64,000 nt of DNA from Naegleria gruberi (GCA_000004985.1 GG738904.1); one strand, 5' to 3'. Counted from the first letter of the stretch, positions 58,880 to 63,038 are shown. Notes: a model not told the origin generated them from the letters alone. Numbers and translations are program-made.

Positions 58880-58892
58880 TTTGTCAGTTAAA

Positions 58893-58962
58893 ATATTTGA
58901 TCGTCGATTCCCCGTGCCAGTGTTGTGGTAGTAAAAGTGATTCCGTAATCGACTCTCAAAAA
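58893..58962 (+). repeat. Left copy of a 70-bp direct repeat, coinciding with the bidirectional promoter between 58879 and 58972
   Basis: The sequence atatttgatcgtcgattccccgtgccagtgttgtggtagtaaaagtgattccgtaatcgactctcaaaaa matches 62548-62617 at 66/70. Confidence 0.9.
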
Positions 58963-58971
58963 AACTGAAAA

Positions 58972-59532
58972 ATGACTCAAACTTCTTCATCAACAGCAGA
59001 AACATCTACAGAAACCTCGGAAGTTCCAAACAACACATCAACCAAAACACCATCAACAACACCATCAAAAACACTATCAAAAACATCAACCAAAACACCA
59101 TCAAAAACATCAACCAAAACACCATCAAAAACACCAAGAAAAACACCAAGAAAAACACCAAAAAAAACACCAGCAAAGAAATCTGCAAAAAAACCATTCA
59201 CAGGAGGAATTAAAAAGCCACACAGATATAGACCAGGTACTGTAGCTTTAAGAGAAATCCGAAAGTATCAAAAAAGCACTGAATTATTGATAAAAAAAAA
59301 ACCTTTTTGTAGGTTGGTGAGAGAAGTTGCTCAAGATTACAAATCTGATGTTAGATTTCAAGCGAATTCACTCCTTGCACTTCAAGAAGCAGCTGAGGCA
59401 TTTATTATTGATATTTTTGAGGATACTAATCTTTGTGCCATTCACTCCAAAAGAGTTACTATTTTGCTCAAAGATATGCAACTTGCATTAAGAGTAAAAG
59501 GTGTTAATTATATTGGTTTATTAAATAAATAA
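58972..59532 (+). CDS. Divergent histone H3 variant with a T/S/K/P-repeat N-terminal tail
   Basis: Histone fold: [95 protein letters not shown]. The canonical ARTKQTARKS tail is replaced by [31 protein letters not shown]. Confidence 0.85.
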
Positions 59533-59565
59533 TATTAATCATCATCATTTAATATCTTTAAAAAA

Positions 59566-62545
59566 ATGTCTTGTACTTTAGAAGATATTTTTCAAGACAC
59601 ACAATTCAAAAAGTTCAACGATAAAGGAAAACCGTATTGTGAAGGAGTTGTACATTTAAAACAAGAAGACTTATACAAATTTTTAGGAATAAAAGAAGTT
59701 AAAAAGAAAAGGATATTAGAAACCTCCGAATTAAATCGATGTAAAAATGNNNNNNNNNNNNNNNNNNNNNNNNNNNNNNNNNNNNNNNNNNNNNNNNNNN
59801 NNNNNNNNNNNNNNNNNNNNNNNNNNNNNNNNNNNNNNNNNNNNNNNNNNNNNNNNNNNNNNNNNNNNNNNNNNNNNNNNNNNNNNNNNNNNNNNNNNNN
59901 NNNNNNNNNNNNNNNNNNNNNNNNNNNNNNNNNNNNNNNNNNNNNNNNNNNNNNNNNNNNNNNNNNNNNNNNNNNNNNNNNNNNNNNNNNNNNNNNNNNN
60001 NNNNNNNNNNNNNNNNNNNNNNNNNNNNNNNNNNNNNNNNNNNNNNNNNNNNNNNNNNNNNNNNNNNNNNNNNNNNNNNNNNNNNNNNNNNNNNNNNNNN
60101 NNNNNNNNNNNNNNNNNNNNNNNNNNNNNNNNNNNNNNNNNNNNNNNNNNNNNNNNNNNNNNNNNNNNNNNNNNNNNNNNNNNNNNNNNNNNNNNNNNNN
60201 NNNNNNNNNNNNNNNNNNNNNNNNNNNNNNNNNNNNNNNNNNNNNNNNNNNNNNNNNNNNNNNNNNNNNNNNNNNNNNNNNNNNNNNNNNNNNNNNNNNN
60301 NNNNNNNNNNNNNNNNNNNNNNNNNNNNNNNNNNNNNNNNNNNNNNNNNNNNNNNNNNNNNNNNNNNNNNNNNNNNNNNNNNNNNNNNNNNNNNNNNNNN
60401 NNNNNNNNNNNNNNNNNNNNNNNNNNNNNNNNNNNNNNNNNNNNNNNNNNNNNNNNNNNNNNNNNNNNNNNNNNNNNNNNNNNNNNNNNNNNNNNNNNNN
60501 NNNNNNNNNNNNNNNNNNNNNNNNNNNNNNNNNNNNNNNNNNNNNNNNNNNNNNNNNNNNNNNNNNNNNNNNNNNNNNNNNNNNNNNNNNNNNNNNNNNN
60601 NNNNNNNNNNNNNNNNNNNNNNNNNNNNNNNNNNNNNNNNNNNNNNNNNNNNNNNNNNNNNNNNNNNNNNNNNNNNNNNNNNNNNNNNNNNNNNNNNNNN
60701 NNNNNNNNNNNNNNNNNNNNNNNNNNNNNNNNNNNNNNNNNNNNNNNNNNNNNNNNNNNNNNNNNNNNNNNNNNNNNNNNNNNNNNNNNNNNNNNNNNNN
60801 NNNNNNNNNNNNNNNNNNNNNNNNNNNNNNNNNNNNNNNNNNNNNNNNNNNNNNNNNNNNNNNNNNNNNNNNNNNNNNNNNNNNNNNNNNNNNNNNNNNN
60901 NNNNNNNNNNNNNNNNNNNTTACATACTGTTCACACAAGAAAACAGAATGATAAAGTATGTGTAGATAAATTACCAGAAAAAGTAATGATTAAATTGTCA
61001 ATGGATGGTAGAGAATTTGGAAATTTACGAACAGTTGTAGTTACTTTGAATATTTTAAATTTACATTTATTCGGAACACAAGAAAGAGACTGTGTTTTCC
61101 CAATTCTAATGTATATAGGTGAAGAGAAAGATATTATTAATTATATAACTGAAATTGAAAAAGAAGTTATTGAACTTTCTACCAAACATATTACTATCAA
61201 AGAAAACGAGCATGATGCTACACTATCACTTGAAAATACAACCCAAACAATTCCATTAGAATTCTATTGGGTGAGTGATTTAAAATCACTTGAATATTGT
61301 TCATTATTGAAAGAACATGCTATGTTTTGTCCTTTCTGCAACATTAAGAAACAAAATTCATTGTCTGGGATTTGTTCTGAAAATAGTAGAAATTTACAAC
61401 ACAAAATGGGTGTTAAATCATCCAATATTTTCATATGCATTTTGCATATGGATGAACGAATTACTGAATATATTTTGAAAATGACCTTAAAAACTTCGGA
61501 ACTTGAAAAGCAAATGAAAACCAATATTTGTTCATTAGAAGGTTTTGCTGATTTTAATTTTCATTCATCAAGTGTTTTAGTGAAAGATACAATCGAAGAA
61601 GAAAATGCTCTCACAGTTAAGGAATATTCATTTATGTTATCTGGCGGGCATTGTAATAAGCTTTTTGGATCTTTTGATAAAGTTTTTGGATTTTTGAAAG
61701 ATTCAAACTCAAATATGTATAATATTTGGAAAAAATACAAATCAATTAGACAGTGGTTGTATTATACAAATGAAGATTTGGAAAAGAAATCATTAAAGGA
61801 TTGGGAAAATTTTGATTCTGAGTTAAATGAATGGAGATTGCTTTTTGTTCTACAAAAAGCTGATAGTGGAAGAATAGGAGATTACATTCATATTGCCACT
61901 GCACATCTTTATGACTTGCTTTCAACTTATGGAAGTCTGGTTCCTCTTTCAAATCAAGGTGTAGAAAGTTCTCATCAATTAGATTGTTTGATTATGGAAA
62001 GAGGGACAAGTAAGGGTAAAATGTCTATTGGTACCAAAAAAGCTCAAGCTGGCTCCTCAAAACCAAACGTGGAAACTGTATCCAAACCTGCTTCCCATAC
62101 TCTTGAGTCTAGTGATCTTGATAATGAGCAAGAACATAAGGAATTTAATTATGAATCATTTATTAAGAAGACAGAATCTTGTGACTGGAATGATTTATTC
62201 CAAGTTTGTCAAATCATGCTGAAGAAACTTAGAAAGTTGTATTTATCTTTTACTTGTGAAGAAGTACTATTTGTCCGGTTAGAAAGAAGGACTGGTAAGG
62301 TAATAAGAAAAGATTGGACAAGAGACATTTTAACTATGTCTCCCAACTTTACTCTGCCTATCCGAAAACCAACCAATGTTCTCATTCAAAAACCAGATAA
62401 CATTAACACTGAAGTGATATCTCCACAGCTTGCTCCATCCCAAGATGTTCCTAAAAGAACAGTTGAACTCAAACAATCCCAGGAATATGGATTGGTTGTG
62501 AATGGTGATGATGATGGGTTGATGAATGATGATGTCTTCTATTAA
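59566..62545 (+). mobile_element. RAG1-core-like / Transib-superfamily DDE transposase gene, interrupted by a 1170-N gap at 59750-60919
   Basis: The post-gap ORF (60920-62545) has KLSMDGREFG (D1), FYWVSDLKSLEYCSLLKEHAMFCPFCN (D2, then CxxC 17 aa later) and DYIHIATAHLYDLLSTYGSLVPLSNQGVESSHQ (HxxxxH, then E 20 aa after the second His). This parallels RAG1 D600, D708, C727/C730, H937/H942 and E962. Linking the pre-gap ORF (59566-59749) to it is an assumption. Confidence 0.65.
59750..60919. other. Assembly gap (1170 N)
   Basis: Run of n characters. Further 50-N gaps lie at 14880-14929 and 16102-16151, and a single n at 14800. Confidence 1.
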
Positions 62546-62547
62546 AA

Positions 62548-62617
62548 ATATTTGATCGTCGATTCCCCGTGCCAGTGTTGTGGTAGTCAAAGCGATTCCG
62601 GAATCGACTTTCAAAAA
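62548..62617 (+). repeat. Right copy of the 70-bp direct repeat, starting 3 nt after the transposase stop codon
   Basis: The sequence is atatttgatcgtcgattccccgtgccagtgttgtggtagtcaaagcgattccggaatcgactttcaaaaa. It contains an internal 9-bp inverted repeat, gtcgattcc...ggaatcgac. Confidence 0.9.
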
Positions 62618-63038
62618 TTCAATAAAATGTGCCATCAAATAAAATTTTATCAAAGGCCTTTATTGTTAGAAATAATAATTATTATTTAAATATTAAACAT
62701 TGTTACTTCATATAATCAAATTAAAAGCATGTTAAATGTTTAATATATAACAAATAATAACTGTAATAATCGGAATTGTAAAATTCTGGAAGATTTTAAA
62801 CAGTAGTGGTTTTAATTGGTTCAAAAAGTGGCAAAAAAAAATTTGGCGCAAAGAGCGGTCGACAATTTGTCGAGTCTTGCTGAATGGTTATTTTCAACTC
62901 TAGATTTGTAGTGTGAAAAGCAAACATTCAATTTCAAAATCTCTTTTACCCGAATGGCCTTTTGCGGTTAGAGCTCGTTATCACGCACTTGCTCAAGAAT
63001 CATTTTGAAAAAAAAACTTTACGAAACTTGCCTAAACC

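Follow-up and report, generated by a model that had tools for sequence, protein, structure and literature searches.

Two copies of a palindromic element bracket a histone H3 variant and a RAG1-like gene in Naegleria gruberi

We analysed a stretch of 64,000 nt from Naegleria gruberi (GCA_000004985.1 GG738904.1), referred to below as the window, in which two direct copies of a short palindromic element enclose a gene for a histone H3 variant (H3v) and a gene related to RAG1 and the Transib transposases (R). The left copy makes up nearly all of the spacer (P) that separates the divergent start codons of H3v and of an orphan gene, B, and the right copy (P') is found at the 3' end of R (Table 1). 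By comparison with related loci, this bracketing of H3v-R is conserved, because an environmental contig (L007) shows it too, with an element of another sequence. At the level of sequence, our analysis shows the repeat pairing to be a maintained feature and not an insertion scar. The repeat appears as a conserved part of a compact four-gene cluster around a RAG1/Transib-type gene in heterolobosean amoebae, and the cluster also holds a dedicated, fast-evolving H3 variant, an orphan gene and a conserved partner gene of R, here called A. The reading that we favour, at slightly less than even confidence, is that the direct repeat is a paired protein-binding cis-element that marks the start and the end of the H3v-R unit.

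The two copies match at 76 of 85 nt between 58890-58974 and 62545-62629 (89% identity; spacing 3655 nt; repeat search and alignment). Mismatches fall at alignment positions 44, 49, 57, 66, 74, 75, 77, 78 and 79, and the first 43 nt are identical; the probability of so uneven a spread, with none in the first 43 nt, is 0.002 (9 in 85) or 0.03 (4 in 73). An earlier note on this DNA had described a 66/70 match between 58893-58962 and 62548-62617 with looser similarity beyond the 70 nt, and our alignment recovered both. A core 34-mer of the repeat has two exact occurrences in the window versus 0 expected (100 shuffles), and the window holds two copies of the direct repeat only. Past the 85 nt, the flanks of the two copies share no similarity at the DNA or protein level (blastn, tblastx), and a decayed second H3v copy behind the right repeat was rejected on this basis. 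The placement given previously also holds: the 70-nt match on the right begins 3 nt past the transposase stop codon (TAA, 62543-62545), and each 85-nt copy has an ATG at its end, which is the H3v start (58972) on the left and the start of a 20-codon open reading frame (ORF) on the right. Runs of N, which mark assembly gaps, are found in the window at 985-6105 and 7514-13723, in two runs of 50 N, and at 59750-60919. The last of these (1170 N) lies between the two copies, which sit on separate contigs of the scaffold, so that how they are ordered and oriented depends on the scaffolding. In its support, the conserved gene order A-B-H3v-R recurs in two further organisms (N. lovaniensis and the source of L007).

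The spacer P is an imperfect palindrome whose arms pair CAGTT with AACTG, TTTGA with TCAAA, and GTCGATT with AATCGAC. Its fold has a z-score of -3.1, and 0 of 200 shuffles fold equally well. Both arms present the same series of motifs toward their respective genes, GGAATCGAC-NN-TCAAA-W5-7-AACTGA-M-AAAATG. The spacer reaches both start codons of two divergent coding genes, the positional property expected of a bidirectional promoter, and the earlier description of the left copy as a bidirectional promoter region thus stands, with real divergent genes on its two sides. In P', the outer palindrome arm is lost. The inner arms of P' (62547-62566 and 62600-62619) are 20 nt long and 85% complementary, the fold has a z-score of -3.8, and a perfect 14-nt palindrome, CGATTCCGGAATCG, is present at 62593-62606. 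The internal inverted repeat GTCGATTCC/GGAATCGAC, which had been reported for the repeat as a whole, is perfect in the right copy and matches at 8 of 9 positions in the left copy; it is part of the longer dyad with 20-nt arms. A structured RNA at either copy was rejected, the relaxed Rfam matches around the copies being at chance level (E > 1); no tRNA and no Rfam match at gathering thresholds were found anywhere in the window. As a separate observation, a TTCCGAAA-like motif is found 20-45 nt upstream of the unrelated starts at 33082, 44287 and 46823 (+) and of the gene at 48042-49589 (-). This motif may be a general N. gruberi promoter element, and the repeat holds the related sequences TTCCGGAA and TTCCGTAA.

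A second bracketing pair was found in L007. There, the B-H3v spacer is formed by a perfect 22-nt palindrome, CCATTTTTTAGGGTGTCGAATG, that extends to both ATGs (1547-1568 / 1604-1625), and a second copy with perfect 19-nt arms, TTTTAGGGTGTCGATTTAA (5250-5268 / 5294-5312), lies 18 nt past the R stop codon. The direct similarity between the two L007 copies is significant (z = 9.7; 0 of 1000 shuffles as good). Their arms are identical over 14 nt on each side, but their loops, of 35 and 25 nt, have diverged, a pattern that speaks for constraint on the arms rather than for a recent copying event. The only sequence common to the elements of the different species is the core GTCGAWT/AWTCGAC. In L007 this core occurs four times, always within the two palindromes; N. 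lovaniensis has it once between B and H3v (9494) and once 56 nt past the R stop codon (12884). L007 thus shows the arrangement independently and with a different sequence, in agreement with the previous proposal that the bracketing is not coincidental. No such palindromes were found at the loci that carry A and R without B and H3v. The L007 arms also hold a telo-box-like CCCTAAA directly before the ATGs. A third telo-box-like CCCTAAAAATGG is placed directly before an ATG at 6272-6283 of L007, outside both palindromes; this suggests that part of the L007 palindrome arm may be a common leader or promoter motif in that organism.

The age of the gene arrangement was assessed from the loci retrieved, namely L001 and L003 from Willaertia magna, L005 from N. 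lovaniensis, the environmental contigs L002, L007 and L009, and L006, whose R protein is 99% identical to NAEGRDRAFT_76677, a second N. gruberi paralog. One of them, L009, came from a metagenome search for further clusters and contains A-R only. At all of these related loci, a homolog of gene A lies ahead of R in the same orientation. The two genes are adjacent and 24-131 bp apart, without B and H3v, in L001, L002, L003, L006 and L009, whereas the order A forward, B reverse, H3v forward and R forward is found in the window, in N. lovaniensis and in L007. The flanking genes of the cluster differ in each locus, and the two locus types are not separated in the R tree. By these comparisons A-R is a conserved two-gene module in Heterolobosea and the older unit, and B, the promoter and H3v lie between A and R. 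It follows that H3v and the transposase were not inserted together as a bracketed block. The earlier note had proposed the insertion or duplication of the H3 variant and the transposase as one unit, and the five A-R loci without B and H3v speak against it. The proteins of the cluster are 27-60% identical between species and the orthologous spacers can no longer be aligned, which places the A-B-H3v-R order before the divergence of N. gruberi, N. lovaniensis and the L007 species. The two N. gruberi copies, in contrast, are 89-94% identical; they would thus be far younger than the gene arrangement or actively kept alike.

From this arrangement we infer that the element binds a factor and acts as promoter and terminator, that H3v and R are co-transcribed, and that gene conversion has taken place. 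P would serve the divergent genes B and H3v as their full common promoter and leader, with the 20-30 nt ahead of each ATG coming from one half of the palindrome. R starts 33, 13 and 10 nt past the H3v stop codon in the three species, which leaves no room for a promoter of its own, and it is therefore probably dependent on P and expressed from P through H3v. P' would mark the 3' edge of the H3v-R unit. Both copies may bind one dimeric sequence-specific factor, with the half-site GTCGAWT / AWTCGAC placed 25-35 nt apart. Bound at P, this factor would drive transcription of both B and H3v; bound at P', it would close the unit, by termination or as a roadblock, give rise to an antisense or outward transcript, or do both. 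The likeness of the copies within a genome would be maintained by selection on the arms, and in N. gruberi a recent gene conversion or re-duplication may also have homogenised the loop. Several points weigh against a paired cis-element of this kind. The promoter and terminator activities are read from position. The repeat pair is clearly present in two of the three clusters by sequence similarity, and the N. lovaniensis sites share the 7-mer only, their overall similarity being non-significant; the 7-mer criterion was moreover picked after inspection of the data. Finally, copies that are identical within a genome and different between genomes are the classic signature of transposon ends.

This last point makes the nature of R important. 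The R ORF at 60920-62542, which encodes the C-terminal 541 aa, matches NAEGRDRAFT_73321 with 100% identity. Over its first 61 codons, R carries a coding signal and shows no detectable similarity to the N-termini of the homologs. R itself has no Pfam match, and a profile built from five R sequences gave no match in the PDB. An exhaustive profile search recovered 220 R-family relatives in public data, most of them unnamed, and a 44-sequence profile of the family matched amphioxus RAG1L (6b40; E 7.7e-8), vertebrate RAG1 (E about 1e-6) and the Transib transposase (6pqn; E 9.5e-6). The hidden Markov model alignment of the R family to RAG1 and RAG1L spans the Y-x-H-x4-H...G-x-E stretch, and two R-family members match Pfam RAG1. 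Residues D432, D521, C538, C541, C573, H576, Y717, H719, H724 and E744 are invariant or nearly so in 44 family members (numbering of P0002), D432, D521 and E744 being invariant or at least 90% conserved. The family layout is D...D...C-x2-C...H-x4-H-x19-E, in which C538-x2-C541 lies 17 residues past the second D and H719-x4-H724 lies 20 residues ahead of E. D120 and E349 are conserved in the R protein of the window. R therefore presents the characters of the CMCT clade of transposases, an RNase H-like DDE core with three acidic residues together with C-x2-C / H-x4-H (PMC12730594). The AlphaFold2 (AF2) model obtained from a five-sequence alignment was not usable (pLDDT 32), and the model from a 46-sequence alignment reached a pLDDT of 76.5 and a pTM of 0.77. 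In a Foldseek search with the latter, the top 39 matches were all RAG1 (E down to 5e-9, about 425 columns), with Hermes far behind. Profile, motifs and predicted fold thus agree with the RAG1-like label that R had been given.

The mobility of R is a different matter. There are at least two R paralogs in N. gruberi and two in W. magna, and apparently decayed copies are present as a frameshifted gene in L002 and a truncated gene in L003. The L002 frameshift (2220-2260) falls in a conserved HMDERITEY and splits the R homolog into P0005 and P0003, by decay or by assembly error. No near-identical R copies and no empty sites were found among the retrieved loci. A search for terminal inverted repeats (TIRs) between the region upstream of A and the region downstream of R in five loci gave nothing significant (best z = 2.1), and no target-site duplications (TSDs) were found. 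The R loci thus depart from the CMCT family, in which TIRs, usually of the form 5'-CA..TG-3', are accompanied by TSDs of 2-5 bp. These results support a RAG1-like R, as judged from sequence and predicted structure, and membership in a mobile family is not supported by TIRs or TSDs. Some weak leads for CMCT-type CA..TG termini were noticed. In N. lovaniensis, a perfect 12-nt inverted repeat 5'-CACAACAATTTA...TAAATTGTTGTG-3' (L005 8104-8115 / 13003-13014) encloses the entire four-gene cluster; a TSD is absent, and an equal score was reached by 27 of 500 shuffles. In N. gruberi, CACAACAC lies upstream of A (57470-57477) and GTGTTGTG lies in both repeat cores. The weak CAC...GTG leads of L005, L007 and the window are all without TSDs. 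We also considered whether the repeat core, read on its minus strand, forms an RSS-like heptamer-23-nonamer arrangement, and dropped the idea as numerology: an inverted partner is absent and the nonamer-like part is T-rich.

It is nevertheless conceivable, though unlikely, that P and P' are cis-acting DNA sites of R, which might act on them together with A. The two sites would then be the ends of a mobile H3v-R cassette, or belong to a domesticated self-flanking system that excises, inverts or nicks H3v-R. Each site is palindromic, so that direct copies also face each other with inverted arms, like transposon ends. R keeps the predicted RAG1/Transib fold with all catalytic and zinc-binding residues, its family is multi-copy with the decayed members described above, and the near identity of the copies within genomes and their difference between genomes are as expected of ends that co-evolve with a transposase. 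The sites also stay with the cluster wherever it is found, whereas the genes around it change from species to species. In L007, the inner-facing arms read 5'-CACCCTAAAA...TTTTAGGGTG-3' (CACCC...GGGTG) with TCGA flanking both sides, and resemble the CA..TG termini and 2-5-bp TSDs of CMCT transposases (PMC12730594). However, the CAC/GTG reading fails in N. gruberi, where the bases after TCGA are C-T-C. The A-R-only loci have the transposase and lack the palindromes, which means that R does not generally come with them, and no TIRs or TSDs surround any whole locus searched. The arms, moreover, abut start codons and resemble leaders. That the palindromes are the DNA substrates of the RAG1-like protein, in a self-flanked cassette of H3v and recombinase whose sites double as promoter, we consider quite improbable. 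If true, this would be a protist analogue of a recombinase gene lying between its own signal sequences, with a dedicated histone variant linked to a RAG1-family enzyme in Naegleria and relatives. Excision of the 3.65-kb segment by recombination between the copies is possible.

The right copy might instead be a functionless relic, that is, a B/H3v promoter copied 3' of R by a short local duplication or a gene-conversion tract and now slowly decaying. Several features of P' agree with such decay: its ATG-proximal end has diverged (5 of the last 12 positions), it lacks the outer arm, it is followed by a non-coding ORF, and 410 nt separate it from the next gene; nor is there a significant repeat in N. 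lovaniensis. The details of the divergence argue otherwise. The N. gruberi mismatches are unevenly spread, as described above, and two of the four core differences perfect the 14-nt palindrome CGATTCCGGAATCG in the right copy, contrary to decay. In L007, the second palindrome is found in the same place with conserved arms and a diverged loop. By sequence, the mismatch spread and the better inner palindrome of the right copy fit constraint or conversion better than decay, and we regard a relic as rather unlikely.

If the element were instead a dispersed multi-copy promoter module or a small mobile element, the 85-mer might bracket H3v-R by chance. Our search for further copies covered 51 kb of N. 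gruberi sequence and 11 kb from a near-identical environmental strain. Within the window, the element is present in its two copies and absent from 18 of the 18 other gene starts examined, and exact GGAATCGAC is confined to the repeat. The core 25-26-mers were found in no IMG/VR or JGI metagenome contig. Since the same two positions are also occupied in the independent genome of L007, chance bracketing appears very unlikely.

Finally, a transposase gene flanked by direct repeats whose copies lie on different contigs could suggest a TSD, the long terminal repeat (LTR)-like termini of a 3.65-kb insertion or a scaffolding artefact, all of which we regard as highly improbable: the repeat (73-85 bp) is far longer than the 2-5-bp TSDs of CMCT elements (PMC12730594), as had been pointed out from the sequence, and holds a promoter palindrome and a start codon with no termini inside; there is no reverse transcriptase or integrase gene between the copies, where only H3v and a DDE transposase-family gene are found; the 3.65-kb block is not an ancestral unit; and the gene order is confirmed in two other assemblies, while nine differing positions and unrelated flanks show that the copies are not one collapsed sequence.

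How does this cluster compare with known systems? Transposases of the CMCT clade (EnSpm/CACTA, Mirage, Chapaev, Transib) act on elements with CA..TG termini and 2-5-bp TSDs (PMC12730594). R resembles them in its profile matches to RAG1L, RAG1 and Transib and in a predicted fold that matches RAG1. Its loci differ in that such termini and duplications were not detected, in that a partner gene of no known fold, A, lies upstream of R in every locus, and in that an H3 variant and an orphan gene are found between A and R in three loci. In Dothideomycete fungi, hAT DNA transposons have captured and amplified histone H3 genes (PMC6710886; Pyrenophora, PMC3538342), which reach tens or hundreds of copies, most of them inactivated (PMC6710886). 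An H3-like coding sequence is likewise physically tied to a DNA-transposase gene here. In contrast to the fungal case, the transposase is of RAG1/CMCT type, H3v is intact, divergent and kept in position in three species, and it has what would be its own palindromic bidirectional promoter, with no amplification seen.

Compact bidirectional promoters of divergent gene pairs are classically those of histone gene pairs. The present spacers are similar in that a dyad of 71-92 nt separates divergent start codons and one of the genes is a histone, but the partner is an orphan gene and not a histone, and a second copy of the element lies 3' of the next downstream gene. Domesticated transposases may also act at sites that flank their own locus, as do alpha3 and Kat1 of Kluyveromyces lactis, in mating-type switching, and RAG1/2 with its recombination signal sequences (RSS). 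Here too, two copies of a specific sequence enclose a transposase-family gene and are possible substrates, but these sites have the look of promoters, and the likeness goes no further than position. Our literature searches gave no account of an H3 variant coupled to a RAG1/CMCT-type gene, and none of a promoter palindrome repeated at the 3' end of a unit. To our knowledge, a second copy of a whole promoter element at the 3' end of the next downstream gene has not been described. The cluster raises the questions of whether, in a eukaryotic genome as compact as this one, a single short palindrome can be promoter and unit boundary at once, whether a RAG1-family protein outside animals is domesticated or still mobile, and why an H3 variant is kept physically, and probably transcriptionally, coupled to a RAG1-family gene.

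Table 1. Features of the cluster and of the palindromic element, with positions counted from the first nucleotide of the window
Feature	Position	Strand	Remarks
Gene A, partner of R	57510-58389	+	Homologs upstream of R; exact 5' end inferred
Gene B, unannotated orphan ORF, 159 codons	58400-58879	-	Divergent from H3v; identified by coding score
P, complete B-H3v intergenic spacer, 92 nt	58880-58971	.	Imperfect palindrome, ATG to ATG
Direct repeat, left copy	58890-58974	+	Most of P and the H3v ATG
H3v, histone H3 variant, 186 aa	58972-59532	+	Pfam Histone, E 4.2e-37
Gene R	59566-62545	+	RAG1/Transib-like (CMCT clade); split by gap 59750-60919; start 59566 predicted
Direct repeat, right copy (P')	62545-62629	+	Starts at R stop codon; AATAAA at 62621-62626
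20-codon ORF after right copy	62627-62689	+	Non-coding; codon score -0.29 bits/codon

The other genes of the cluster were characterized from the same loci. Gene A opens with one or more Lys/Thr-rich exons; an intron with a TACTAAC branch site follows at about 57727-57769, and the main exon ends at 58389. Its homologs in L001, L002, L003, L005, L006, L007 and L009 are 35-44% identical (tblastn E 1e-16 to 1e-46), and across loci the protein measures about 210-260 aa and presents a conserved Cys-rich motif, MFCxSCA. Pfam gave no match for either A or B. The codon score of B in frame (+0.32 bits/codon) is as high as that of bona fide genes, and every other frame scores below zero; a search of 5.8 billion proteins gave no match to B, and N. 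gruberi annotation does not include it. The corresponding position holds a B homolog in N. lovaniensis (27% identity, E 1.7e-8) and, by three-way alignment, in L007 as well.

H3v is identical to the N. gruberi "histone H3" database entry and has a long Thr/Lys/Pro-rich tail encoded by 12-nt repeats. It is 63% identical to human H3.1, and the three H3v proteins, with orthologs in the matching position of N. lovaniensis and L007, are 53-63% identical to H3.1. The protein database search with H3v was dominated by tandem-H3 proteins and recovered no orthologs. PMC7052976 lists among its criteria for cenH3 divergence of the N-terminal tail and of the histone fold, and loss of the conserved alpha1 glutamine. 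In the three H3v proteins, the alpha1 glutamine is replaced (PFQRLV to PFCRLV, NFRRLI and PFGRLV) and the N-terminal tails cannot be aligned; no loop-1 insertion was found, the KSDVRFQ region being ungapped relative to human H3.1. H3v thus presents three of the four cenH3 characters of PMC7052976, the loop-1 insertion being the one it lacks. The annotation of N. lovaniensis contains neither B nor H3v, which we place at L005 9066-9485 (-) and 9563-9987 (+), within a seemingly empty 937-bp gap between called genes. We flag two genes as unannotated: B, in both Naegleria species, and H3v, in N. lovaniensis. Gene A (57575-57726) and H3v (59032-59175) both have Lys/Thr(/Pro)-rich N-terminal tails derived from tandem repeats with a period of 12-27 nt, and these tail repeats cross-match weakly at the DNA level (families D1-D3).

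Downstream of the cluster, no coding ORF was found by coding scores between P' and gene T, which encodes an RGS domain and starts at 63039. The spacer 3' of the right repeat copy holds an E2F-like site, TTTGGCGC, at 62842-62849, after an A9 run and about 190 nt upstream of T, and is otherwise AT-rich. In N. fowleri (L004), the T ortholog is found in a rearranged region without A, B, H3v and R; this region is not syntenic and hence uninformative on an empty site. A paralogous RGS gene lies upstream of the N. fowleri T ortholog, and local synteny is scrambled relative to the window (49773-51695 (-), 63039-64000 (+)). A window gene 11 kb upstream of T matches an N. fowleri gene located 9 kb downstream of T.

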